Positions 32,714 through 57,697 are shown, counted from the stretch's first letter. The stretch: DNA of 64,000 bases from Gammaproteobacteria bacterium (GCA_024638505.1 JAHEKE010000009.1:12196-76195), one strand, 5' to 3'. Notes: generated from the letters alone by a model not told the origin. Numbers and translations are program-made.

Positions 32714-32935
32714 TCCCGCGAGGTGACGCTGATCTGTTGATAGCCATAACGCTTTTCACCTAATATGATTTGATCAAAGACGAAGCTGATAAAACATGGA
32801 TCAAACACAAACGCTCAAAACAATATGTCACCATTGGCAAAGCGAGCAGTGCATTAGCGGACGAGGGTTGGAATCTTTGCCTATGGTCCAGCAATGCGAC
32901 CGCGCACAAACCACGGCTGCGGATTGGTGAGCGCG

Positions 32936-33349
32936 ATGAATCCGGCCTTAAGCCTGCGTAATTCCTGCCTTTTGATTTGTTGTCTTTGCCTCTTCTCCAT
33001 CTGGGCATGGGCTCAGCCCTCGGGGGACATCATTCAGCAGATTGAAAACTCCACGCCCCTGGAGCGGGCGCTGGCGCAGGCTGAAGTGTTGACCGACGTG
33101 CTGGGGCTGAGCCCGGAGCAGACCGAGAAGCTGATAAAGATCAATCTTAAATATTCAAATCGAGTACAACGATTGATCGAAAAAGGTGTCGAAGATACTG
33201 TTATGCTCATCAGCGCGCAGGAATTTGCTCAGGAAAAAGACGAAGAAATCAAGAATTTGTTAACAAAAGAGCAGCTGCGTCGTTACGAGAGACATAAGGC
33301 GAAGCTCAGAAAAATCGTCAGGGACGTGATACAAGAACGCAATCGGTAG
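32936..33349 (+). CDS. Small secreted helical protein with LTxxQ-like motifs (Spy/CpxP-like?)
   Basis: From ATG 32936 the protein begins MNPALSLRNSCLLICCLCLFSIWAWA|QP, a signal peptide. The remainder is charged and helical, with LSPEQTEKL and LTKEQLRRY motifs. Confidence 0.6.
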   Translation: MNPALSLRNSCLLICCLCLFSIWAWAQPSGDIIQQIENSTPLERALAQAEVLTDVLGLSPEQTEKLIKINLKYSNRVQRLIEKGVEDTVMLISAQEFAQEKDEEIKNLLTKEQLRRYERHKAKLRKIVRDVIQERNR

Positions 33350-33358
33350 GCGGGTAAG

Positions 33359-34231
33359 ATGACGATACGGCTAGGGCATCCTGTGTGCGCCGCACGTGTT
33401 TTGGCGGCGGCTGTGCTGTATTGTCTTAGCCTTTCCGCGCCGGCGACGACGGTGGGCGATCTGCAGGCGGCCCGGGATAACCTGGGCGCTGCGCGCGCCG
33501 CGCTGGCCAGCGCGGCGGGGGAGTTTACCACTTTGCTCGCCGACAATAGCCTTAGCCAGACCGAGAAAAAGGATTTCCTGTTTTATCTGGACCGGCTAAA
33601 GCAGGTGGTGCAGGAGAAATGCCGAGAGGTGCTGACTGTAAAAGCAGCGCTTGAGGACAATACGCCAGAGCGGGGATGCAACCAAGTCGTCATGTCACCG
33701 CCTGAGGTTTCATTCCCCAGCGAGCAAACCGAGGACGAACGAGTGGCCGCACTCGAAAATCAGCTTAGATCCTCCATGTCAGAATTCGACGAGCTATTGT
33801 TACGTCAGATGGAGGAGCTAGAGCGCCAGCGGTCCACGGCGTCTAGTGGATCGGCCGGAACGGATGCGGCGGAAGACGGCGGCCAGCAGGGCGGTACGAG
33901 CGGCGGAGCGGGAGAGAAACCGGCGCAAGATGAGTCTGCGCAGGAGGGTACGAAGGAGGAAGGCGGCGGCGAAGCGCAAGGCCAGCAGCAGACTGCGGCT
34001 AGAGACGCACCGGGGGAACAGCAGCAAGGTGGAACCCGCGGTGGTCAGAGTAAGGAACAGGCCGGTAGCGCGGTCAGGCGAGATGATCCTCCTGCTGCGG
34101 GAGATGACGATATTGTGGCGCGGCAGCTGCGGGAGGCGGCCGAAAACGAGGCCGATCCGGAGCTACGCGAGAAGCTGTGGGAAGAGTATCGACGTTACAA
34201 AGAGGATAATGCGGTATCCAAGTCCAATTGA
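33359..34231 (+). CDS. Secreted protein with acidic Gly/Gln/Glu-rich disordered region
   Basis: 290 aa. It has a signal peptide (...LYCLSLSAPA) and a helical N-terminal half. A low-complexity region of about 80 aa (SGSAGTDAAEDGGQQGGTSGGAGEKPAQDE...) follows, then a conserved-looking tail DDDIVARQLREAAENEADPELREKLWEEYRRYK. Confidence 0.6.
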   Translation: MTIRLGHPVCAARVLAAAVLYCLSLSAPATTVGDLQAARDNLGAARAALASAAGEFTTLLADNSLSQTEKKDFLFYLDRLKQVVQEKCREVLTVKAALEDNTPERGCNQVVMSPPEVSFPSEQTEDERVAALENQLRSSMSEFDELLLRQMEELERQRSTASSGSAGTDAAEDGGQQGGTSGGAGEKPAQDESAQEGTKEEGGGEAQGQQQTAARDAPGEQQQGGTRGGQSKEQAGSAVRRDDPPAAGDDDIVARQLREAAENEADPELREKLWEEYRRYKEDNAVSKSN

Positions 34232-34239
34232 TTAATGCG

Positions 34240-35547
34240 ATGAACTGCTGCTTGAGATTGCGCTTTAGATTACTCTGCTTGTTGGCTATCTTATTGACCG
34301 CCTGTCAGACGCTGCCACCGGCAACAACGCTGGATACGCCGATCAACAACGCGCAAACGGAGGTTGCAGAAGACGAACTGCTTGATGTGGGTATCCACGT
34401 TCTAGCGCAAGGCCCGATCAGCGATGATGCCAGGGAGAGGGGCATAAACGAGGATGTGCGCGGGGCAGAGGGGCGCTTCATGGCGGTGCACTTGCGCAAA
34501 ACCATCCAGCAAACGGGCCACTGGGGCGCAGTGCGCGTAATCCCAGCGCAAACGGAGGCCGTGGAAGTGGTGGTTAATGGAGAAATCGAGAAGTCTGACG
34601 GTGAATTCCTCACTCTCCGAATCGAGGCGGTTGACGCTACCGGCGTGACTTGGTTTAGTAAAGTTTATGAGAAAAGGGTGCCACCGTCGGCTTACAACGG
34701 AATGAAAGAAGAAGAGATTTTTCAGGATGTGTACAACCGCATAGCAAATGATTTACATCTGTCTAAATCGAAACTCTCTGCTTCGGAAATCGAAAAAATA
34801 CGTCGCGTGGCTGCCCTGCGCTTCGCTAGCTCCCTGGCGCCAGACGCGTTCAGTGACTATCTCGGCTCGGATGGAGGAATGTACAACGTTCAGCGTTTGC
34901 CCGCGGCTGAAGACCCCATGTTCGATCGGGTGTTGCGCATTCGCGAACGCGAATATCTGATGGTTGATGTAATCAACGGGTACTACGACAATCTTTATGC
35001 AGAGATGGAAACACCCTATTTTGACTGGCGTCGGCTCAGCGTTGAAGAGGCAGCGGCCTTGCAGGAGTTAAAGCGCAAAAGTACGCAGCGGTATCTGCTG
35101 GGCAGCGCCTTGATTCTGGGTGCCATTGCGGTTGAAGTGCTGGGTGGTGATAGCAATACTTCGACCTTGCGAGACGTAATGGTAATAGGCGGTGCGACTG
35201 CGGTAAAAAGCGGCGTAGATTTGGGTGCGCAGAAGAAGATGCACAAAGAGGCCATCCGCGAAATGGGCGAATCGTTTCAAGCGGAAGTGTCGCCAATGAT
35301 CGTAGACATCGAGGGCCAGACGACGGAGTTAACCGGGTCGGCAGAAGAGCAGTTCATCAAATGGCGAGAGCTGCTGCGGCAGATCTACCAATCGGAGACT
35401 GGTCTCCCGGTGCCGACGATCCGCGGCGAAGAGCTACCGCAACCTGAAGCAGAACCAGAACCCGCACCAAGTCCTCTGCCCCGAGCCGATGAGACGATCT
35501 CGCTGGTTCCATTCACTACTGCATCCAAGCATTCCGTTCAGGCATAA
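34240..35547 (+). CDS. Putative lipoprotein, unknown function
   Basis: ATG 34240 lies 8 nt after the upstream stop. The lipobox is LLAILLTAC|Q. About 435 aa, with an internal hydrophobic segment (YLLGSALILGAIAVEVLGG) and a Pro/Glu-rich tail. A TTG at 34228 is an alternative start. Confidence 0.6.
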   Translation: MNCCLRLRFRLLCLLAILLTACQTLPPATTLDTPINNAQTEVAEDELLDVGIHVLAQGPISDDARERGINEDVRGAEGRFMAVHLRKTIQQTGHWGAVRVIPAQTEAVEVVVNGEIEKSDGEFLTLRIEAVDATGVTWFSKVYEKRVPPSAYNGMKEEEIFQDVYNRIANDLHLSKSKLSASEIEKIRRVAALRFASSLAPDAFSDYLGSDGGMYNVQRLPAAEDPMFDRVLRIREREYLMVDVINGYYDNLYAEMETPYFDWRRLSVEEAAALQELKRKSTQRYLLGSALILGAIAVEVLGGDSNTSTLRDVMVIGGATAVKSGVDLGAQKKMHKEAIREMGESFQAEVSPMIVDIEGQTTELTGSAEEQFIKWRELLRQIYQSETGLPVPTIRGEELPQPEAEPEPAPSPLPRADETISLVPFTTASKHSVQA

Positions 35548-35652
35548 ATCGGAAATTGCGTTGTTTTAACGAAACGGACTTTGGCGTTTGCAGTCTGTGG
35601 CATTTTTGCCCTCCGCAATTGCCTGCATAATCAAACGTGAGAGCGGCTGTAT

Positions 35653-37134
35653 ATGATCGGAGATCAAAGCGCTACGGCAGGTGGGCACACGTCTTCAGGG
35701 CCGAAACCGCCTGAAGCAAAATCAACTTCCAACCTCGCCGTCCGCATCACTTTGCTGATAGCGCTGGTTGTTCTGGTGCTGGTAATGATTAGCGTGATCT
35801 GGGTTTTACCGCGTTATATCGACGAAGCCACTGTTCCGCTGGTCGAAGCACCAACCGCTCAAATCAGATCCACTGCGCCGCCGCCAACAGAAGCGCAAAC
35901 TCTCCTGGCCAGAGAGAAGCGTCAAGCAGAGCGGGCGCTGGGAGAATTTCTGCAAAGACAGGCATTGTGGGAAGGAAAAGAGATCGCGACATGGGGAGGT
36001 GAGCAATACGAACAAGTGTTGCGCACCCTTGCCGCAGCGGACGCCGCCTTCGCCAATGGTGACTTTGAGCTGGCTAAAACTAAATACACTACGGCCAGCG
36101 CGATGTTAAGCGAGCTCGAAGCTTCCAGACCCGAGCGCCTGCAGGCAAGTCTGCAGGCCGCTGCGACGGCGCTTACAGACTTCGACGCGGCTAAGGTACA
36201 GCACCATTATCAAATAGCGCTCGCGCTGGAACCACAGAATGAAGAGGCGCTAAAGGGTTTGAAACGTGCTGCCACTCTGCCACAACTCGCGGCACTGCTT
36301 GCTCAGGCGGGGGAGGCGGAGCGGCTGAGTGACTGGCCTGCCGCGCAAGAATTCTATGAGCAGGCTGTTACCCTGGATCCGCAATCAAACGAGGCTCGCC
36401 AGGGCTTGGCACAGGTCAGCGCCCAGCTCGAGGATGTACGCTTTCGTACGCTAATGTCTAATGCCCTGGCGGCGACGCAAAATGGGCAGTTTGAGTCAGC
36501 GCGTGAGGCATTGTCTGATGCGGGTAAGCTTAGGCCGGATGCGCCGGATGTGCGCGACGCTGAACAGCGTCTGCGCTTAGCCATCCAGCAGTCCAGAATT
36601 TCTGCTCATCGACGCCGCGCTGAGACTTTTGTACAGCAGGAGCGCTGGCAAGAGGCGGCAGAAGAATATGATGCGGCACTGGCCATCGATGCCCAGGCGC
36701 AGTTTGCACTACACGGTCGCAGGCACAGTAAAAATCTGGCAGCGCTGCATGGTCAGCTAGGCCAATACCTCATGCAGCCGGAACGCTTACATTCAGTGGA
36801 GCCTCGCGCTAACGCTCGAGCGCTTCTCCAGACGCTGCGGGGAATGGCAGATAAAGGGCCCCGGCTTGCGCAAAAGGAGCAAGATCTGGAGAGAATAATG
36901 GAATTAGCGGAAACCCCGGTTATGGTGCAGCTGCTGTCAGATGAAGAAACTGAGGTGCGCATAGATCGCGTCGGCGAGCTCGGACGCTTCAAGCAATCAA
37001 CCGTTGCGCTGCTGCCAGGAAACTATGTCGTTCGAGGCAACCGGGTAGGTTATCGGGACGTACGACTTGAACTGGTTGTGCAACCAGGAGCGACCGCATC
37101 ACCCCTGGTTGTAAAGTGTAGGGAAAAGATTTGA
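35653..37134 (+). CDS. Membrane-anchored TPR-repeat protein with C-terminal PEGA-like beta module
   Basis: 493 aa with one N-terminal TM helix (ITLLIALVVLVLVMISVIWVL). Repeated TPR-like units follow (...YQIALALEPQNEEALKGL..., ...YEQAVTLDPQSNEARQGL..., ...YDAALAIDAQAQFAL...). The C-terminal ...LLPGNYVVRGNRVGYRDVRLELVV resembles a PEGA module. Confidence 0.7.
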   Translation: MIGDQSATAGGHTSSGPKPPEAKSTSNLAVRITLLIALVVLVLVMISVIWVLPRYIDEATVPLVEAPTAQIRSTAPPPTEAQTLLAREKRQAERALGEFLQRQALWEGKEIATWGGEQYEQVLRTLAAADAAFANGDFELAKTKYTTASAMLSELEASRPERLQASLQAAATALTDFDAAKVQHHYQIALALEPQNEEALKGLKRAATLPQLAALLAQAGEAERLSDWPAAQEFYEQAVTLDPQSNEARQGLAQVSAQLEDVRFRTLMSNALAATQNGQFESAREALSDAGKLRPDAPDVRDAEQRLRLAIQQSRISAHRRRAETFVQQERWQEAAEEYDAALAIDAQAQFALHGRRHSKNLAALHGQLGQYLMQPERLHSVEPRANARALLQTLRGMADKGPRLAQKEQDLERIMELAETPVMVQLLSDEETEVRIDRVGELGRFKQSTVALLPGNYVVRGNRVGYRDVRLELVVQPGATASPLVVKCREKI

Positions 37135-39470
37135 ATTCAATAACGGTGATTACCGACGACGGTCAGGCTACGCGCTGCGCCGAATCGGAGTTCATAGTAA
37201 TTGGCGGCAGTACAGCCAGGGTTTCGCTGCCGGGGGATTCGAGCAGTAATGAATACGCTTATATTGAGAATCGTCAGGGTCACCCGTGGCTGGTACCTTT
37301 AATCCCAACCATTACCGCGCAGATAAACGGAAAAATAATTACGCAGGCAAGCCCGCTTAGAGACGGGGATGTGGTAACCGTTGGTGAGGCCGCTTTCTCA
37401 ATCAGTACGGCACCGCAGTTACTTACAATCACAACCATCGATGCCCAGCGATCGCTGCCGGAGGTGGCGGCAAGCAGTGCTGCGTCCGCTGGAAGAATGC
37501 GCCTGTTCAAGCTGGCGCTGTATGCGACATTCTTGCTCCTTGTTATGGTCGTATTGTTTGTATTCTTCGCAACCCCTGTTTCACTGGTGATCACACCAGA
37601 TCCCGAGAGCACGCAGTTTAGGGGTTTTCCTCCTCCGGTCAGGGTGAAGGATCGATACCTGGTTTTGCCCGGACAGTATGAGGTGCGTGCGTCGAAAAAC
37701 GGCTATGAGTCGTTAAAGGTAACGGTGTCCGTTACGCGTGGCGACTTCCAGGAGCTGAGTTATGCGCTGCAAAAGCTGCCGGGCCGAGTTAGCATATATT
37801 CACAACCGGCAGACGCTGTCGTCACGCTGGATGGTCGAACTATCGGGTTGACTCCCCTGGTGCACAGCAAGATTCCAGCCGGACGCCACGAGGTAATCGT
37901 ATCTGCTCCGCGCTACCAGGCGCAGCAGCTGGACTTGAATGTGGAGGGTCTGGATAGAGAGCAGATTATCCGCATTGATCTTGCCCCAGATTGGGCGCCA
38001 GTGACGGTTCGTTCACAGCCTGCAGGTGCGGATATCTTTATCGATGGTGAACGACTTGGTGTATCACCCTTAACGACGGAACTTTTGTCCGGCAAACACG
38101 TTGTATCGATCGAACTCGAGCGACATCTGCCGGAAAAGGTAGAGGTGGAAGTCGAGGCAGGCATGGCTCTGGTTTTACCGGCGGTTGCGCTTACGCCTAC
38201 ACCCGGCAGGTTAAGGATAACCAGCAAACCGGCGGATGCAACGGTTACCCTTGATGGCACTTACCAGGGTAGTACGCCGCTTGATTTGACGCTGACTCCA
38301 GATGTGGATCACGCCATTACGCTGACCAAAGCCGGTTATGTTGAGAAGAAGCGCACGGTCAACATGAAGGCGGCAGCGGAAGAAACGATAATGGTAGACT
38401 TACAGGCGGAGTATGGCGTGATATTCATTGCCAGTGATCCGGTTGACGCAACGCTGTATGTGGACGGTGAACAGCGCGGAAGTGCGAGTCAGCGACTGCG
38501 CCTGACAACGCGCCCGCACACGCTGGAGTTCCGTAAACCTGGGTATAAGACGTACCGCACGACGCTTACTCCCCGAGCGGGCGTGAGCAAGGAACTTTCT
38601 GTCAACTTGTTGCCGGATAGCGCAAATGTCGGATCACCGGCTGGATCCGATAGGATTCGAACCGCCGAGGGTCAGGAGTTAAAGCTGGTCACACCCGGCC
38701 AATTTACCATGGGTGCGTCAAGACGGGAGCAGGGACGCCGTGCCAATGAAAATCTGCGCCGCATAGAACTTACCCGTCACTACTATATGGGGACGAAGGA
38801 GGTTACGAACGCAGAGTTCCGTCGGTTTAAACCGGGGCATAGTTCTGGCGCCGCTTATGGCCGCAGCCTAGATCTGGATAATCAGCCGGTGGTGAACGTG
38901 AGCTGGGAAGACGCCGTTGCCTATTTGAATTGGCTCAGTAAAAGAGAAGGTTTGCCGGTTGTTTACCAGCAGCGTGGTGATAAATGGGAGGCAGTCTCCC
39001 CTCTTGGCCCGGGTTATCGATTACCCACGGAGGCAGAATGGGCGAATGCCGCGCGTTTTTCGGGAGCGGAACCCAGGAAGTATGCCTGGAATGGCTCCTA
39101 TCCACCGCGTGAAAGCACGGAGAACTTCGGCGACCAATCTGCGGCTGGCTTGCTTCCATACACTCTGGCGTCATACAGCGACGGTTTTGCTGTCAGTGCG
39201 CCGGTGGGCAGCTTTGCACCGAATGAATCCGGGTTCTATGATCTGGGTGGTAACGTGGCAGAATGGATGCACGATTATTATGAAATACAACCCGCTCAGA
39301 CCAATGCGCTGGCGAAAGATCCGGTCGGACTCACATCAGGCAGGCATCACGTAATACGCGGTGCGGGGTGGAAAGACTCCACTATCAGCGAGCTGCGGTT
39401 AAGTTTTCGTGACTACGCGGATGGTCCACGCGATGACCTAGGTTTCAGGATTGCTCGTTATGCGGATTAG
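37131..39470 (+). CDS. FHA - TM - PEGA-repeat array - FGE/sulfatase-modifying-factor-fold protein (cysteine-free, probably non-catalytic)
   Basis: 779 aa, overlapping the upstream gene by 4 nt. Residues 1-95 are FHA-like (FIVIGGSTARVSL...INGKII...LRDGDVVTVGEAAFSI). Residues 124-148 form a TM helix. Four clear PEGA units plus one degenerate unit follow (SQPADAVVTLDGRTIGLTPL, SQPAGADIFIDGERLGVSPL, SKPADATVTLDGTYQGSTPL, SDPVDATLYVDGEQRGSAS). The C-terminal roughly 265 aa carry FGE-sulfatase-family motifs: GYRLPTEAEWANAAR, DLGGNVAEWMHDYY, RGAGW and GFRIAR. Confidence 0.8.
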   Translation: MNSITVITDDGQATRCAESEFIVIGGSTARVSLPGDSSSNEYAYIENRQGHPWLVPLIPTITAQINGKIITQASPLRDGDVVTVGEAAFSISTAPQLLTITTIDAQRSLPEVAASSAASAGRMRLFKLALYATFLLLVMVVLFVFFATPVSLVITPDPESTQFRGFPPPVRVKDRYLVLPGQYEVRASKNGYESLKVTVSVTRGDFQELSYALQKLPGRVSIYSQPADAVVTLDGRTIGLTPLVHSKIPAGRHEVIVSAPRYQAQQLDLNVEGLDREQIIRIDLAPDWAPVTVRSQPAGADIFIDGERLGVSPLTTELLSGKHVVSIELERHLPEKVEVEVEAGMALVLPAVALTPTPGRLRITSKPADATVTLDGTYQGSTPLDLTLTPDVDHAITLTKAGYVEKKRTVNMKAAAEETIMVDLQAEYGVIFIASDPVDATLYVDGEQRGSASQRLRLTTRPHTLEFRKPGYKTYRTTLTPRAGVSKELSVNLLPDSANVGSPAGSDRIRTAEGQELKLVTPGQFTMGASRREQGRRANENLRRIELTRHYYMGTKEVTNAEFRRFKPGHSSGAAYGRSLDLDNQPVVNVSWEDAVAYLNWLSKREGLPVVYQQRGDKWEAVSPLGPGYRLPTEAEWANAARFSGAEPRKYAWNGSYPPRESTENFGDQSAAGLLPYTLASYSDGFAVSAPVGSFAPNESGFYDLGGNVAEWMHDYYEIQPAQTNALAKDPVGLTSGRHHVIRGAGWKDSTISELRLSFRDYADGPRDDLGFRIARYAD

Positions 39471-39666
39471 CTTATTACTCGCGGTGCTTATGCTTTTCCT
39501 GACCGCGGGCGCGATAGGTCAAGAGAAAAGCACGGGCGATGTCAGCGCGGACGCACCAGGCGAAAACCAGGAGCAGAGAGTCGAGACCAAAGACATACCC
39601 TCTCAGTTTGTCCCCAAAGAAAAAATTTCACCTGATCAAGTAATTTCTTTTCCCGCTGATATATAG
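39460..39666 (+). CDS. Small secreted protein (68 aa)
   Basis: ATG 39460 overlaps the upstream stop by 11 nt. The signal peptide is MRISLLLAVLMLFLTAGAIG|Q, and the mature part is acidic and polar. No motif is recognised. Confidence 0.5.
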   Translation: MRISLLLAVLMLFLTAGAIGQEKSTGDVSADAPGENQEQRVETKDIPSQFVPKEKISPDQVISFPADI

Positions 39667-39682
39667 GTTAACAACAAGCGTT

Positions 39683-40504
39683 ATGAACAAAGCCATTCCC
39701 GTTGAATTTTTCTACCAGGTTTTTTCTCTGCTGATCGCCATAATTATCGTGCACGCGGTATACGTAGCGGTTATCCGGCCTAATGCTGATGCCTTTATTG
39801 AGCATGAAGTGGCACAGATGAAAGCCGATCCTGAGTACGTACAGAGACGGTCGATTTTCGTTGTGATCCGCGATTTTGAGCAGGAAGCCTGCTTTGTTTT
39901 AGCGCTGTGGGCATTCAGCATCATGGGTTATAAAGGTGTCACAACTTATCGTGAGCGCAAGCTGCTTGATAGTGATCCTCTGGGCGGCAATAGTGACAGG
40001 TCGGGTGGCGGATTGAATATTGCCGGGCTAGCAAAGCGCCTGGATACACTGCCACGCCGCGCACGGGAAATGCTGCTGCCGAGGGCACTGGACGCGGCGC
40101 TGTCACGATTCTCTGCAACAGGAAGTGTGCACGATGCATCTGCAGCGGCAAGAGAGATCTCGCAAACCGAGGCCGAACGACTTGAATCTGAGCTATCCAT
40201 CATACGCTACATTGCATGGGCCATCCCCTCTATAGGATTCATCGGCACCGTTCGGGGTATTAGTGACGCGCTGGCGCAGGCTCATCGCGCAGTAGAAGGG
40301 GACATCACGGGAGTCACGCAGAGTCTGGGCGTTGCATTCAACTCTACATTCGTCGCGCTGGCGATCAGCATTGTCGTTATGTTCTTTGTGCACCAGTTGC
40401 AGTTAGCGCAGGAGCGAGTGGTGTTAGACACGGAAACTTATTGTGACCGCAACCTGATTCGTCAGCTGACGAAAACCGGGAGCAAAGCCTCGCTCGATCC
40501 GTAG
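39683..40504 (+). CDS. MotA/TolQ/ExbB-family proton-channel protein
   Basis: 273 aa. The C-terminal region IAWAIPSIGFIGTVRGISDALAQ...GVAFNSTFVALAISIVVMFFV matches the MotA_ExbB channel core (...P.lGllGTV.G...AL.tT..Gl...). N-terminal TM helices are separated by a cytoplasmic insert of about 100 aa. Confidence 0.8.
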   Translation: MNKAIPVEFFYQVFSLLIAIIIVHAVYVAVIRPNADAFIEHEVAQMKADPEYVQRRSIFVVIRDFEQEACFVLALWAFSIMGYKGVTTYRERKLLDSDPLGGNSDRSGGGLNIAGLAKRLDTLPRRAREMLLPRALDAALSRFSATGSVHDASAAAREISQTEAERLESELSIIRYIAWAIPSIGFIGTVRGISDALAQAHRAVEGDITGVTQSLGVAFNSTFVALAISIVVMFFVHQLQLAQERVVLDTETYCDRNLIRQLTKTGSKASLDP

Positions 40505-40571
40505 ATATGTCAACAAGTCTATTGCAAGTGAAAATCTATCCAGGGATGCGCAGAATAGCGGCTTGCTTACC

Positions 40572-41657
40572 GTGAAGCGGCGCAGAGAAGTCAACGTTTT
40601 CGGGCTGTCCTTCCTGGACGTCATGTTTTGCGGTTTTGGTTCGGTCATTCTGCTGGTAATGATCATCAACTCGGAAACGCTGGCACAACGTAAAGAGGTA
40701 CATGAAGATCTTAGGGGCGAAGTGAAGCGTCTGCAGACGGAGGTTAATGTGGGGCAGGATTACCTGGTGCAGGTGCGTAATACCCTGACTCTGGTTAATC
40801 AGCAGAGCGCTGTGGCACAGGGTCGCGCACGTGAAGCGTTAGAGCAGATCAACCAGATCAAAATAGAACTGGCTGATCTGACCCGGCAGGCGCAGTCACA
40901 GATCGAGCATGTCAACCGTCTGAAATCAGATCTCAAGCAGGCGGAGGCCGACCGGCAGCAGCTGGCGAGCGAGAGGGAGCAGGCCGAGCAGCAGGGGCGC
41001 AACGTGCGCCGCTTCGTCGGGGAAGGGGACCGCCAGTACCTGACTGGCCTGAAGATTGGTGGAAAAAGAATCCTGATTCTGCTCGACGCATCAGCCAGCA
41101 TGCTCGACGAGACGATAGTCAACATACTGCGTTTACGTAACCTCCCGGCAAGCACTAGACGGAATGCGGAAAAATGGCAGCGTGCGTTAAGAACAGTGGA
41201 GTGGTTGCTGAGCCAGATACCGAGCACCAGCAGCTTTCAAGTACTGGTGTTCAACGCAGAAACCAGCGCTGTGCATAGCGAGAAGCAGTGGCTTCAACCC
41301 GTTGCAAACAATCTCGATCAGGTCATCGCCGGCCTGAGTCTAATGGCCCCATCAGGCGGAACCAGTCTGTTTAATGCATTTGACACCATTAAACAGATTG
41401 CCCCCAAACCTGACAACGTCATTTTGGTAACCGACGGTTTACCGACGCAAGGAAAATCGAAGCACAGCGGGGGGCGGGTTTCGGGCAAGCAGCGCCTTGA
41501 GTATTTCAAGCAGGCTACCAGAAGATTGCCAAAAAACGTCCCGGTCAACACCATCTTGTTTCCCATTGAAGGCGATCCGCTGGCGGCCAGTGAATTTTGG
41601 AAGCTGGCGGTCGACAGCGGCGGATCATTCATGAGTCCATCGAGTGACTGGCCATGA
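40572..41657 (+). CDS. Bitopic protein: ExbD/TolR-like N-terminal TM helix + coiled coil + vWA domain (paralog 1)
   Basis: The GTG 40572 start was chosen by analogy with the paralog (MKRRREVNVFGLSFLDVMFCGFGSVILLVMII versus MKRHRRGLQVFSISFLDVVCSAFGAIILVLVL). An Asp lies in the TM helix at 40617-40619. A heptad-rich segment of about 110 aa follows. The vWA domain has a complete MIDAS motif (LLDASASM ... GGTSL ... VTDGLP). Confidence 0.75.
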   Translation: MKRRREVNVFGLSFLDVMFCGFGSVILLVMIINSETLAQRKEVHEDLRGEVKRLQTEVNVGQDYLVQVRNTLTLVNQQSAVAQGRAREALEQINQIKIELADLTRQAQSQIEHVNRLKSDLKQAEADRQQLASEREQAEQQGRNVRRFVGEGDRQYLTGLKIGGKRILILLDASASMLDETIVNILRLRNLPASTRRNAEKWQRALRTVEWLLSQIPSTSSFQVLVFNAETSAVHSEKQWLQPVANNLDQVIAGLSLMAPSGGTSLFNAFDTIKQIAPKPDNVILVTDGLPTQGKSKHSGGRVSGKQRLEYFKQATRRLPKNVPVNTILFPIEGDPLAASEFWKLAVDSGGSFMSPSSDWP

Positions 41658-42661
41658 AGCGACACCGACGGGGGTTGCAGGTTTTCAGTATCTCTTTCCT
41701 GGATGTAGTGTGTTCAGCCTTCGGCGCCATCATTCTAGTATTGGTTCTGTCAAAGACTGGGGAACCGCGGGTTTTGGAAAAGCTGGGCGCTGATTTGCAG
41801 GGCGTCGTAGCGGATTTACAGCAGAAGCTGTATGAAATCCGTGGTGAGACGCAGGTTTTGAATCGAGACCTGGAAAGAAAGCAACCTCAACTCTCACAGT
41901 CCCGAGAGAATCTGGCCCGCCTGCTGCAGGATTTGTCGGTAAAGCGTGGAGAATATGAAGACACGTCGGAGCAATTGGAGACGCAGCGCCTCATAGCGGG
42001 CAAGTTGGCGTCGGCTCGCCAGTCTCTCAGCGAGGAGATGAGGCGTTTACTTGGTAGTGATTACCGGCGTAAGGCCGATGACACCACGGTCGGCGGTATT
42101 CCTGCAGACAGTCAGTACATCATATTCATAATTGATACTTCTGCCAGCATGTTTAATTACAGTTGGGGCCTTATGCAGAAAAAAGTTGAAGAAACGCTGG
42201 ATATTTATCCCGCTGTCAAGGGTATACAGGTTATGAATGACATGGGACAGTATATGTATTCGCAGTACTCAGGCAGATGGATTCCCGACACGCCAGCTCG
42301 TCGGAAGGCCATTCTGCGACGGTTGGCAAGCTGGAATCCTTTCAGCAATAGCAGTCCGGTGGAGGGAATCACGGTTGCCATTCGCACCTTTTATGAGCCC
42401 GGCAAGCCTATCAGTCTTTATGTGCTGGGCGATGAATTCTCGACCGGCTCTATCGAACAAGTAGTAAAAACCGTGGATAGATTCAACCGGGCGGACAAAG
42501 ATGGCAAGCGCCTGGTGCGCATTCACGCCGTTGGCTTTCCCGTTCAGTTTCAGCGTGGGGATGGACAAGATGCGACCGGTGTACGCTTCGCTGCACTGAT
42601 GCGTATACTGTGCGCACGCAACGGAGGCACTTTTGTTGGACTGAATCGCATTAGCCCTTAA
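41654..42661 (+). CDS. Bitopic protein: ExbD/TolR-like N-terminal TM helix + coiled coil + vWA domain (paralog 2)
   Basis: 335 aa with a 4-nt ATGA overlap with paralog 1. It has the same N-terminal SFLDV TM motif, with Asp at 41702-41704. A coiled coil follows. The vWA domain carries IIDTSASM (DxSxS) and VLGDEFS. Confidence 0.75.
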   Translation: MKRHRRGLQVFSISFLDVVCSAFGAIILVLVLSKTGEPRVLEKLGADLQGVVADLQQKLYEIRGETQVLNRDLERKQPQLSQSRENLARLLQDLSVKRGEYEDTSEQLETQRLIAGKLASARQSLSEEMRRLLGSDYRRKADDTTVGGIPADSQYIIFIIDTSASMFNYSWGLMQKKVEETLDIYPAVKGIQVMNDMGQYMYSQYSGRWIPDTPARRKAILRRLASWNPFSNSSPVEGITVAIRTFYEPGKPISLYVLGDEFSTGSIEQVVKTVDRFNRADKDGKRLVRIHAVGFPVQFQRGDGQDATGVRFAALMRILCARNGGTFVGLNRISP

Positions 42662-43291: not shown

Positions 43292-43714
43292 CTAGCGGCG
43301 AATGTGACAAGCAATACAGCTGCCTGACAAGCGTCCGGCGAGATAATAGTTTGGCGGTTCTGCTGCCACTGCTTTGCGTGCGGCCTCGACGTTGTATTTG
43401 AACTGGTCGATGTTTTCATCAATAAAAAGGTGGTTAGTTTTTTGCGTCCCTGCTCCGAGCTCAATTGCCTCCTGCTCGATTTGCTGCAGCAAGCTGATTA
43501 TTCTTTCTCTCTGGTAACCGCTGATGTGCTCGTTGCTGTCAAATATATCGTTGATGGTCCACATGCTGGTATTTAATTTCTGCATGGTACCTTTAATCTT
43601 ACTGTCATCAAGATAAACCATATTCGGCGGGTATGTTCTCATTCCCACCTGTACGCAGCCGAAGAGGAAGGCCAGGGCGATGCAACAAGCTAGGGCGATT
43701 CGAAGGGCGTGCAT
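43292..43714 (-). CDS. Class II (cytochrome c'-like four-helix-bundle) c-type cytochrome, lipoprotein
   Basis: 140 aa with the lipobox ALAFLFGC. It is predicted to be all-helical. A single heme-binding CxxCH (CIACH) lies 3 residues from the C-terminus, the arrangement diagnostic of class II cytochromes c. Confidence 0.6.
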   Translation of the reverse strand: MHALRIALACCIALAFLFGCVQVGMRTYPPNMVYLDDSKIKGTMQKLNTSMWTINDIFDSNEHISGYQRERIISLLQQIEQEAIELGAGTQKTNHLFIDENIDQFKYNVEAARKAVAAEPPNYYLAGRLSGSCIACHIRR

Positions 43715-56491: not shown

Positions 56492-57697
56492 TCAGGCTGG
56501 TGCTACCTCGTAGTGCTTTAAACGGGCTGAAAATTCTCTTAACGCCTCAATGCCGGAGGCCTCGGCCGCGCGGCACCACTCCTCTAGCGCCTGCAGCAAT
56601 CCGTCATGACTGTTGGATTTTATCCATATGGACTGTAGTTTTTCCTTCATGGCATATGCTCTTTCCAGCGTCGGACTCAAATCCAGCGCTCGTCTAAGCT
56701 GTTCTTTCGCATTTTCGCTAAGTAGTGTGTGCTCCTTACACATGAGTTTTCGCGCACGTTTGAGCAGAGCTTTCTGCCTTTTGTTTACTCCCAGCCGCTG
56801 CAGTTCCTCTGCGTGAACGCTGTTTAGAACTTCTTTTGCAAAATTCGACATCACCTGAAATCGGCTGTTTATCAGAGCTTTAACAGTGGCCAAGTCAAAC
56901 TGATTTTTATCCTGTTTCAGAACTAGTTTGGGTGCTACTTTCTTTACCCGGGCGAGGCCCAGGCCGCGCAGCAGCCGAACGTACTGCCAGCCCAGATCGA
57001 ATTCCCACTTTTTAACGGAAAACTTGGCGGAGCTGGCATAAGCGTGATGATTGTTATGTAGTTCTTCTCCACCGACGATGAATGCCCACGGCACAATGTT
57101 TTTGCTGGCGTCCTTGACTTCAAAGTTACGATACCCCCAGTAGTGACCGATACCGTTTATGACCCCGGCCGCCCAGAATGGTATCCATATCATTTGCGTC
57201 ATCCATATCAGACCACCGGCTATATAGCCAAACAACAGGACATCGATCACCAGCATCAATAAAATACTGAGGTTGGTGAAACGGGCATAAATTTTTCGTT
57301 CCAACCAGTCATCGGGAGTGCCCCCACCGTACTTATCGAGCGTCTCCTGATTCATCGCCTCATTACGATACAAAAACCAACCGCCCCACAGCACGGTGCT
57401 GATTCCTTTTACTACAGGGCTGTGCGGGTCATGCTCCGTTTCTACATTCGCATGGTGTTTGCGGTGGATCGCAACCCACTCTTTTGTTTTCATGCCGGTA
57501 GTTAGCCACAACCAGAAACGAAAGAAGTGAGCTACGGGTGGACTTAGTTCTAATGCCAGGTGAGATTGGCTGCGGTGTAAATAAAGGGTGACGGCTGCTA
57601 TTGTGATGTGGGTTAGGCCAAGAGCGACGAGTACGTATCCCCACCAGGGGAGCTGCAGTATTCCGCTAAACACCAAATGTTCCTCTACCAACGCCAT
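56492..57697 (-). CDS. Membrane fatty-acid (delta-9-type) desaturase
   Basis: 401 aa with three His boxes (HRSQSH, HRKHH, HNNHH) and N-terminal TM helices. A helical C-terminal extension of about 110 aa is present, as in DesA-type enzymes. Confidence 0.85.
   Translation of the reverse strand: MALVEEHLVFSGILQLPWWGYVLVALGLTHITIAAVTLYLHRSQSHLALELSPPVAHFFRFWLWLTTGMKTKEWVAIHRKHHANVETEHDPHSPVVKGISTVLWGGWFLYRNEAMNQETLDKYGGGTPDDWLERKIYARFTNLSILLMLVIDVLLFGYIAGGLIWMTQMIWIPFWAAGVINGIGHYWGYRNFEVKDASKNIVPWAFIVGGEELHNNHHAYASSAKFSVKKWEFDLGWQYVRLLRGLGLARVKKVAPKLVLKQDKNQFDLATVKALINSRFQVMSNFAKEVLNSVHAEELQRLGVNKRQKALLKRARKLMCKEHTLLSENAKEQLRRALDLSPTLERAYAMKEKLQSIWIKSNSHDGLLQALEEWCRAAEASGIEALREFSARLKHYEVAPA

Follow-up and report, generated by a model that had tools for sequence, protein, structure and literature searches.

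The window analysed here, 64,000 nucleotides (nt) of one strand of a Gammaproteobacteria bacterium genome (GCA_024638505.1 JAHEKE010000009.1:12196-76195), contains a run of co-directional genes for a MotA/TolQ/ExbB-family channel subunit, two membrane-anchored vWA proteins and several envelope proteins. A first-pass annotation, made from the sequence alone, had described the interval 35653-42661 as a six-gene operon, and all six open reading frames (ORFs) are present on the plus strand with the boundaries it gave. The genes do form a single conserved module, but this module has eight genes and begins at 33359: two further genes, g290 and g439, co-occur with the other components in fixed order across related loci, and the functional unit is therefore the block 33359-42661 (Table 1), two genes longer than the interval first described.

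Table 1. The eight-gene block, with positions counted from the first nucleotide of the window (aa, amino acids; TM, transmembrane)
Gene	Position	Strand	Product
g290	33359..34231	+	secreted protein; first gene of the conserved block; no Pfam match
g439	34228..35547	+	lipoprotein, lipobox Cys26 (34303-34305); no Pfam family
TPR493	35653..37134	+	493 aa; TM-anchored periplasmic TPR protein, PEGA-like C-terminus
FGE779	37131..39470	+	779 aa; FHA-like domain, TM helix, five PEGA, FGE fold
small secreted protein	39460..39666	+	68 aa from ATG; signal peptide, FPxDI C-terminus
MotA273	39683..40504	+	273 aa; MotA/TolQ/ExbB-family channel subunit (PF01618)
vWA364 (TPH-vWA paralogue A)	40563/40572..41657	+	364 or 361 aa; TM helix with D19, long helix, vWA domain
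vWB335 (TPH-vWA paralogue B)	41654..42661	+	335 aa; TM helix with D17, coiled-coil stalk, divergent vWA

Overlaps of 4 nt join g290 to g439, TPR493 to FGE779 (37131/37134, which depends on the TTG start of FGE779, the alternative being GTG 37146) and vWA364 to vWB335 (41654/41657). FGE779 overlaps the gene of the small secreted protein by 11 nt (39460/39470) when counted from the ATG of the latter, whose longest ORF begins at TTG 39451. A gap of 105 nt (35548-35652) separates g439 from TPR493, one of 16 nt precedes MotA273 (39683), and the gap between MotA273 and vWA364 measures 67 nt from GTG 40572 or 58 nt from TTG 40563. Because the N-termini of homologues read 'MKRRR', GTG 40572 is the probable start of vWA364, and with this start the 67-nt gap of the first-pass annotation holds, as do its 4-, 11-, 16- and 4-nt junctions. 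The starts of three genes of the system are ambiguous between a TTG and a later GTG or ATG (37131/37146, 40563/40572 and 34228/34240); the gene calls on the identical public contigs (L086) chose 34240 and 37146. Scans for promoter and terminator consensus sequences gave nothing above shuffled expectation and were uninformative on the operon boundaries.

To determine how the block is distributed, we scanned genomes with a vWA-A alignment and detected relatives in those of at least 594 species. The gammaproteobacterial carriers include Arenicellales, Halieaceae and other Pseudomonadales, Lysobacterales and Chromatiales, and the others include Desulfuromonadales, Desulfobacterales, Desulfobulbales and several classes of Acidobacteriota. 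The locus set was the best 80 of the at least 594 genome-scan loci, none of them from Idiomarina. The window proteins were compared by BLAST with all ORFs of 85 loci, and genes were counted in the 45 loci with at least 9 kb of upstream and 1.2 kb of downstream sequence. The order g290, g439, TPR, FHA/PEGA/FGE, small ORF, MotA, an optional gene, vWA-A and vWA-B was constant. The MotA, vWA-A and vWB genes were found in all 45 fully flanked loci, TPR and FGE in 44 each, g290 and g439 in 43 each, and vWB335 directly followed vWA364 in every one (45/45). The gene set thus recurs beyond the source genome, and because its content and order are repeated in 43-45 of the 45 loci and in three phyla, the recurrence is not chance. 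Outside the block, gene content varies from lineage to lineage, the downstream DksA/TraR gene being common to the closest relatives only. One of these, an Arenicellales metagenome-assembled genome (MAG; locus L005), is syntenic with the window, the cluster proteins being 47-83% identical (57-83% without the small protein and g290, which are poorly conserved), and the window therefore probably derives from an Arenicellales-like gammaproteobacterium. Neither the 72,556 plasmids nor the 50,697 phage records searched by tblastn with vWA364 contained a match.

Domain content was analysed by Pfam, NCBIfam and PADLOC scans of nine proteins, those of the cluster and its upstream flank; none of the nine reached an NCBIfam family at its cut-off. 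MotA273 matched the Pfam family PF01618 (MotA_ExbB) over residues 136-250 with an E-value of 6e-15 and 55.5 bits against a cut-off of 22.9, in agreement with the first-pass call of a MotA/TolQ/ExbB-family channel. It scored 28 bits against the TolQ equivalog TIGR02796 (cut-off 221) and 20 bits against the ExbB equivalog (cut-off 135). TolQ structures were the sole matches of the family profile in the PDB (E 0.14), with TolQ 8odt as the closest solved relative. Two threonines in the last two TM helices, T189 (40247-40249) and T222 (40346-40348), were invariant in 12 orthologues from three phyla, and they align to the threonines of the GTVWGI and ATAIGL segments of TolQ (8odt). Sequence conservation of the MotA-like orthologues aligned across phyla was 47-81%. 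The family is a large one: scoring covered more than 8000 clusters at 90% identity, of which the best 120 listed were all at least 61% identical. We assign MotA273, by its sequence matches, as a divergent member of PF01618, which presumably forms a pentameric stator ring.

Each of the two vWA proteins has a basic N-terminus followed by a single TM helix (hydropathy). In the cross-phylum alignments, the helix of vWA364 contains an invariant aspartate, D19 (40617-40619), and that of vWB335 an invariant D17 (41702-41704); the two helices read LSFLDVMFCGFGSVILLV and ISFLDVVCSAFGAIILVL, respectively, and neither contains an SHLS motif. vWA364 matched the Pfam family VWA_2 with 28.5 bits (cut-off 27). 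Its metal ion-dependent adhesion site (MIDAS) is complete and invariant (D175/S177/S179 at 41085-41099, T267 and D291), and the linker ahead of the vWA domain, GEGDRQYLTGLK, is likewise invariant; a C-terminal DWP is a further family-specific invariant. vWB335 gave no Pfam vWA match, and its family profile retrieved only coiled-coil noise from the PDB by sequence; it was assigned a vWA domain because of its profile-profile match to vWA364. This match (hhalign, probability 99.4%, E 1.2e-21) extends over 318 columns, corresponding to the full length, and BLASTP aligned the two proteins with an E-value of 5e-11, so vWB335 is a full-length paralogue of vWA364. It has an invariant DxSxS motif, D161/S163/S165 (42134-42148), together with D260, and its orthologues aligned across phyla showed 52-83% sequence conservation.

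An AlphaFold2 (AF2) model of vWA364, with an overall pLDDT (predicted local distance difference test) of 77.5, contained one continuous helix from residue 15 to residue 142, which comprises the TM segment and about 107 periplasmic residues and would be about 16 nm long if straight. A low-confidence linker separates the helix from an alpha/beta vWA domain at residues 169-360, modelled at a pLDDT of about 90. Foldseek comparison of the model with the PDB gave 137 matches at E<=1e-3, and the best 50 listed were all vWA-domain proteins, including ITIH1, CLCA1, PilB pilin, the Bacteroides aerotolerance protein (4jdu), the anthrax receptor and LapA. The first-pass annotation had proposed two paralogous bitopic vWA proteins with a membrane-embedded Asp and a long helix, a description which the hhalign match, D19 and D17, and the AF2 helix all bear out.

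The largest protein of the block, FGE779, consists of a cytoplasmic FHA-like domain (residues 1-95), a TM helix (128-146), a periplasmic array of five PEGA stretches (Pfam, E 1e-53) and an FGE-fold domain at residues 519-776 (Pfam FGE-sulfatase, E 1.9e-44); it has no lipobox. The last 60 residues were free of Cys in 61 of the 63 FGE779 orthologues, indicating that the catalytic Cys pair is absent, and the stretch at the corresponding position of FGE779 is the Cys-free RGAGWKDSTISELRLSFRDY. Because the pair is missing, the FGE domain, like that of PorK, is predicted to be a C-type-lectin-like module without catalytic function.

The N-terminal domain of FGE779 was below the Pfam threshold for FHA (E 0.0075, 17.1 bits against 20.7), and four of 28 orthologues matched. 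A profile built from 21 N-domains found almost exclusively FHA domains in the PDB, among them EmbR (1.5e-4), EssC (2.8e-4), KIF13B (8e-4), GarA, Ki-67 and Rv1747, and the domain accordingly has an FHA fold. The Arg, Ser and His that contact phosphothreonine (pThr) are not conserved (the consensus has IGG, with GG for GR, and ..AYI without a conserved Ser or His), and only G25, A43, N66, G79 and D80 are invariant or nearly so. The earlier suggestion that the FHA domain receives a phospho-Thr input is therefore upheld for the fold, but the input itself is doubtful. In 37 of 80 related loci an optional gene lies between the MotA and vWA-A genes (for example L003:10798-11841, L068:8572-10014 and L078:8682-9992); its product, a cytoplasmic protein, resembles Hsp70 weakly in the N-terminal region and ends in a genuine FHA domain (PF00498, E about 1e-10 in some loci). 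The optional gene is absent from the window. A long FGE protein without the optional gene was found in 27 loci and a short one, lacking the N-domain, together with the optional gene in 20; both the long form and the optional gene were present in 10 loci and neither in 11, some of which are truncated. This complementary distribution of the FGE N-domain and the optional gene suggests that most versions of the system have an FHA-type module on the cytoplasmic side, provided in cis by the FGE protein or in trans by the optional gene. Its role there is probably that of a regulator or of a scaffold for protein-protein contacts, and not that of a pThr reader.

The remaining products are envelope proteins. 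TPR493 has a short cytoplasmic N-terminus, a TM helix at residues 34-52 (hydropathy) and periplasmic TPR repeats (Pfam TPR_11, E 1.6e-9; TPR_2, E 6e-9). It ends in a conserved beta-sandwich of about 70 residues (..PG.YT..G.R.GYRDVR..) that resembles PEGA/CarboxypepD_reg and was below the threshold for PEGA, the best score, 20.7 bits against 20.8, being that of an orthologue. Nearly all the domain assignments made in the first pass were supported by Pfam or profile searches; this PEGA-like C-terminus remained sub-threshold. The small protein, which is too short for detection by BLAST, begins with a signal peptide, which a variable acidic linker connects to the conserved F-P-x-D-I-COOH end (in the window, ...QFVPKEKISPDQVISFPADI). 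In 61 of 71 loci the FGE and MotA genes were separated by a small ORF; the invariant FP.DI end was present in 50 of 62, and in this FP.DI set a Glu at position -15 (48/50) and an Asp at position -10 (49/50) were retained. g290 has a signal-peptide-like N-terminus, a helical region, an acidic Gly/Gln/Glu-rich linker and a C-terminal motif, DDD[IV]VARQLREAA..E.DP.L..KLW.EYR.YK, that is at least 80% conserved among 50 orthologues. In g439, the lipobox Cys26 is invariant in 26 homologues. In its AF2 model (pLDDT 80.7, predicted template modelling score 0.74), an alpha/beta domain is accompanied by a long helical hairpin (74 + 40 residues), hydrophobic and rich in Gly at its tip (residues 289-335), and by a small beta/alpha unit at the C-terminus. 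Foldseek gave no match for this model at E<=1e-3; the weak matches were the TolB N-terminal domain (E 5e-3, probability 0.99), followed by LptE and PqiC, and we treat these resemblances as a tentative lead only.

The first-pass annotation knew of no characterised system with this composition. This holds for experimental work, but the motor core is of a kind that was already predicted computationally in 2025, in 'Origin and Evolution of Bacterial Periplasmic Force Transducers' (Mol Biol Evol; PMC12204202); what is newly defined here is the accessory gene set. The second vWA family of that study, TPH-vWA, is found mainly in Proteobacteria and Verrucomicrobia, and its genes, mostly in heterologous pairs, co-occur tightly with tolQ homologues and without tolR or exbD. 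AlphaFold 3 placed the TPH-vWA proteins inside a TolQ-like pentamer, ringed by conserved threonines; the study is a computational prediction and reports no phenotypes. The locus described here shares with these predicted motors the tolQ-like gene linked to a heterologous pair of TM-tethered vWA genes, the lack of tolR, exbD and motB, the Asp in the TM helix, the channel threonines, occurrence in Proteobacteria and a predicted 5:2 motor with a dimeric vWA axle. All the features described for TPH-vWA proteins are found, including the C-terminal vWA domain, the Asp helix without SHLS and the tolQ-like gene with its pair, and carriers among Desulfobacterota and Acidobacteriota are added to those reported. 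The text of PMC12204202 and two supplementary files contain no mention of FGE, PEGA, sulfatase, lipoprotein, secreted proteins or an Hsp70-like-FHA gene, and a TPR gene is mentioned for the other vWA family only. That first family, from the PVC group and others, likewise combines an inner-membrane-tethered periplasmic vWA protein with a TolQ-like motor and a TPR gene. However, it has tolR-like genes, an SHLS/His docking helix, a proline-rich linker and a TolA/TonB-like topology, whereas here tolR is missing, the Asp helix lacks SHLS and the linker is a long alpha-helix. Literature searches combining MotA/ExbB/TolQ with vWA, FGE, PEGA and FHA found nothing on this operon besides PMC12204202: a survey of MotAB proteins (mBio 2025) does not mention vWA, and a paper on conflict systems (PMC7159879) treats FGS and PEGA in other contexts only.

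We consider it likely that the locus encodes a self-contained eight-gene envelope machine with a proton-driven 5:2 motor, and a machine powered by the proton-motive force (PMF) with MIDAS heads as its output, as proposed in the first pass, is the best reading. The domain calls, the paralogy of the vWA proteins, the invariant Asp, Thr and MIDAS residues, the positive-inside N-termini, the fixed co-occurrence of the genes and the published prediction (PMC12204202) argue for it. In such a machine, five MotA273 subunits would surround a vWA364/vWB335 heterodimer with D19 and D17 facing the T189/T222 ring, and proton flow at the Asp/Thr site would turn or pull the heterodimeric coiled-coil axle, which would reach about 16 nm into the periplasm. 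There, the paired MIDAS heads may transmit force to a co-encoded partner at about the height of the five-PEGA stalk of FGE779. Candidates for partner or scaffold are the PEGA stalk with its PorK-like FGE head, TPR493, g439 and the two secreted acidic proteins. More speculatively, g439 could act as an outer-membrane anchor and the FHA-type module could regulate or scaffold the motor from the cytoplasm. Candidate biological outputs are envelope tethering or homeostasis, movement of a surface structure, and adhesion.

Several points weigh against the motor. The MotA273 family profile reached TolQ in the PDB at E 0.14 only, even though the Pfam match is significant, and the profile of the vWA TM helices retrieved no ExbD, TolR or MotB from the PDB or Pfam. 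The 'ExbD-like' label of these helices accordingly rests on resemblance, namely the Asp, the basic N-terminus, the genomic context and a motif, and not on demonstrated homology; the motif is the 'F-L-D-V' around the Asp, which is reminiscent of the 'xxDV' of ExbD and TolR. That the vWA helices insert into the MotA273 pentamer is something we infer. The locus was placed in the family of PMC12204202 by matching features and not by sequence comparison with the Idiomarina loihiensis seed, the supplement of that paper containing no TPH-vWA sequences. Finally, the proposal that the conserved acidic C-termini (FPxDI-COOH of the small protein and DDDIVARQL.. of g290) are MIDAS ligands is speculative, the choice of ligand being a guess.

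The same lack of detectable homology to ExbD, TolR and MotB favours an alternative that we consider improbable, in which the vWA proteins are not the axle but independent inner-membrane-anchored proteins of a Bat/aerotolerance-like type, or side-docking transducers similar to TolA and TonB, with the true B subunit encoded elsewhere. A Bacteroides aerotolerance-related membrane vWA protein (4jdu) was indeed among the structural matches of vWA364, but the TM Asp is invariant in both paralogues across three phyla, and no tolR or exbD gene was present in any locus whose genes were listed. In Bat-type operons, TPR proteins accompany vWA proteins, which we counted for this alternative; neither MoxR nor DUF58 is present here, however. 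The vWA genes occurred with a MotA gene in 45/45 loci, with the optional gene intervening in 37/80, and the helices lack the SHLS/His motif of the published side-docking vWA family (PMC12204202).

Profile searches did not assign the cluster to Tol-Pal, Ton, type IX secretion (T9SS) or Zorya, the markers of these systems being absent or far below threshold. The operon contains no MotB, TonB, TolA, TolB, Pal, flagellar or Zorya partner, as the first-pass annotation had noted, and no TolR or ExbD; among the operon proteins no ExbD, TolR or MotB family match was found in Pfam or NCBIfam. Tol-Pal follows the same overall logic, the PMF driving a motor in the inner membrane that acts on partners in the envelope. 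Among solved structures MotA273 is closest to TolQ, the periplasmic TPR protein is reminiscent of CpoB, and the alpha/beta domain of g439 is weakly TolB-N-like. Tol-Pal differs in that no TolR, TolA, TolB beta-propeller or OmpA-like Pal was matched here (Pfam, NCBIfam), axle and transducer would be fused in the vWA proteins, and the PEGA, FGE and FHA modules have no Tol counterpart. With ExbB-ExbD-TonB the locus shares the MotA/TolQ/ExbB family and a B-type helix with a basic N-terminus, but the conserved block is devoid of an ExbD periplasmic domain, TonB and a linked TonB-dependent receptor.

The likeness to gldKLMN, which the first-pass annotation had pointed out, led us to consider whether the locus is homologous to the T9SS/gliding core of Bacteroidota (GldK-L-M-N), having been acquired by or kept in Proteobacteria, and drives secretion or gliding; we regard this as very unlikely. 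The FGE domain has GldK as its best NCBIfam match (E 9.5e-34), but with 117.4 bits against a cut-off of 350 and over GldK residues 216-404 only, and although PorK/GldK chains were the top PDB matches by sequence (1e-15), FGE enzymes scored nearly as well (3e-15). The missing Cys pair and an 'RG.(S/G)WKD' stretch are common to this domain and PorK. The gene order, an FGE-fold protein followed by a stator and bitopic periplasm-spanning proteins, is similar to that of the gliding core, and like GldLM/PorLM with its GldK/N ring the predicted machine would combine a 5:2-type motor with a long periplasmic stalk directed towards a non-catalytic FGE fold. However, the stator is a TolQ-like PF01618 member and not GldL, the stalk consists of a coiled coil and vWA and not of GldM domains, and FGE779 is anchored in the inner membrane by a TM helix and carries an FHA-like domain and a PEGA array, whereas GldK/PorK is an outer-membrane-associated lipoprotein. 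The nine proteins scanned gave no NCBIfam or Pfam match to GldL, GldM or GldN, and neither the operon nor about 30 other window ORFs scanned contained an SprA/PorV-type translocon or another T9SS component. What remains of the likeness is the non-catalytic PorK-like FGE fold.

A Zorya-type anti-phage defence, in which the MotAB-like complex would sense envelope perturbation and signal inward via the FHA domain, is about equally hard to sustain. ZorAB is also a non-flagellar MotAB-like complex with an unusual output, and conflict systems often contain FHA and vWA domains (PMC7159879). In the PADLOC scan of the nine proteins, however, a weak ZorA match (16 bits, E 1e-3) was the sole Zor match, the rest being coiled-coil noise (LmuB, JetC), and since nothing was significant we rejected a defence identity. 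The long ZorA tail, the ZorB peptidoglycan-binding domain, ZorC/D, nucleases and other effectors are missing here. The flanks are housekeeping genes (nqr, ccm, sucAB, purL) and not a defence island, synteny is kept in relatives, and the high cross-phylum conservation of the MotA-like and vWB335 proteins and the lack of plasmid or phage tblastn matches also speak against defence. Least likely of all, with hardly any probability left to it, is that FGE779 is an active formylglycine-generating or EgtB/PvdO-type enzyme in an operon for periplasmic protein or metabolite modification: its Pfam FGE-sulfatase match is strong, with weaker NCBIfam matches to PvdO, SenA, EgtB and OvoA, but all the NCBIfam matches are far under their cut-offs, the stretch of the Cys pair is Cys-free in nearly all orthologues, and no sulfatase or pyoverdine genes lie nearby.

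Beyond the eight-gene proton-driven machine itself, a broader reading is possible but doubtful: the block may be a self-contained class of diderm trans-envelope machine in its own right, hitherto unrecognised, to be set beside Ton, Tol-Pal, flagellar stators and gliding/T9SS and complete with a ligand (FPxDI or g290) and gating by FHA or Hsp70-like modules. In such a class, a rotating MIDAS-tipped axle would engage the PEGA/FGE stalk and the outer-membrane lipoprotein, the FPxDI-COOH peptide or the acidic motif of g290 would be the metal-bridged coupling ligand, and a cytoplasmic FHA or Hsp70-like module would gate the motor. If this were true, T9SS-like mechanics would have arisen independently in Proteobacteria, Desulfobacterota and Acidobacteriota, in a new physiological role. 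Motors of the ion-driven 5:2 type power flagella, uptake through Ton, the maintenance of the envelope by Tol-Pal, gliding/T9SS and the defence system Zorya, and each new output module of such a motor has brought new biology. In the machine proposed here, the usual peptidoglycan-binding B subunit would be replaced by a vWA/MIDAS heterodimer, in at least 594 species of at least three phyla. The parts list is now defined as eight genes and an FHA module that can be swapped between cis and trans, with non-canonical FGE and FHA domains. Kineobactrum sediminis F02, Pseudohaliea rubra DSM 19751 and Desulfogranum marinum are cultured hosts suited to genetics, in which the question of what a vWA-tipped motor pulls on is directly testable.

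Some genes accompany the block in individual lineages. A 151-aa secreted helical protein, weakly DUF4890-like, is encoded at 32894-33349 (+), 9 nt upstream of g290; its gene is kept in the closest relatives only (L005, L006 and L086) and is a lineage-specific neighbour, not part of the core. In one sublineage of the Pseudomonadales/Halieaceae type, co-directional genes recur downstream of vWB335 in about 7-13 loci, encoding an M48 peptidase (13 loci) and proteins of 220 and 233 residues (10 and 7 loci, respectively), and the downstream genes of L003 include one for a PG_binding_1 + SH3 protein. These genes (L003:14019-15782, L051:4597-5259, L058:11322-12023) may be lineage-specific accessories that point to the cell wall. 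A degenerate or rearranged version of the system is present in a 'Deltaproteobacteria' MAG (L004, CP070776, 5642-12084), where the FGE gene was called as a 129-aa fragment, genes for SpoIIAA-like and Gate-domain proteins separate the TPR gene from it, and g290 and g439 were not detected. A full system, 31-57% identical to the window proteins, is found in a contig labelled 'MAG: Klebsiella pneumoniae' (L054, CAMAXE010000004.1); because all other carriers are environmental Gammaproteobacteria, Desulfobacterota or Acidobacteriota, this label is probably a binning or naming error.

Judged by the genes scanned, the window is core chromosome. Upstream of the block are genes for a gyrA/parC-like protein, aceK, sucAB-lpd, gltA, coaBC, panB, hemN and the nqr operon, and downstream are DksA/TraR, hemerythrin, ccm and purL. 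No Rfam or tRNA feature was found in the window. Between the genes of the DksA/TraR-type zinc-finger protein and the hemerythrin lies a 140-aa ORF (43292-43714, -) with a lipoprotein-like N-terminus (..LAFLFGC) and no Pfam match, and L005 has a 144-aa gene at the equivalent position. Further downstream, a 401-aa ORF (56492-57697, -) joins a fatty-acid desaturase domain at the N-terminus to part of an ISL3 transposase (DDE_Tnp_ISL3 positions 89-197) at the C-terminus and looks as if it had been disrupted by, or fused to, an insertion sequence remnant.

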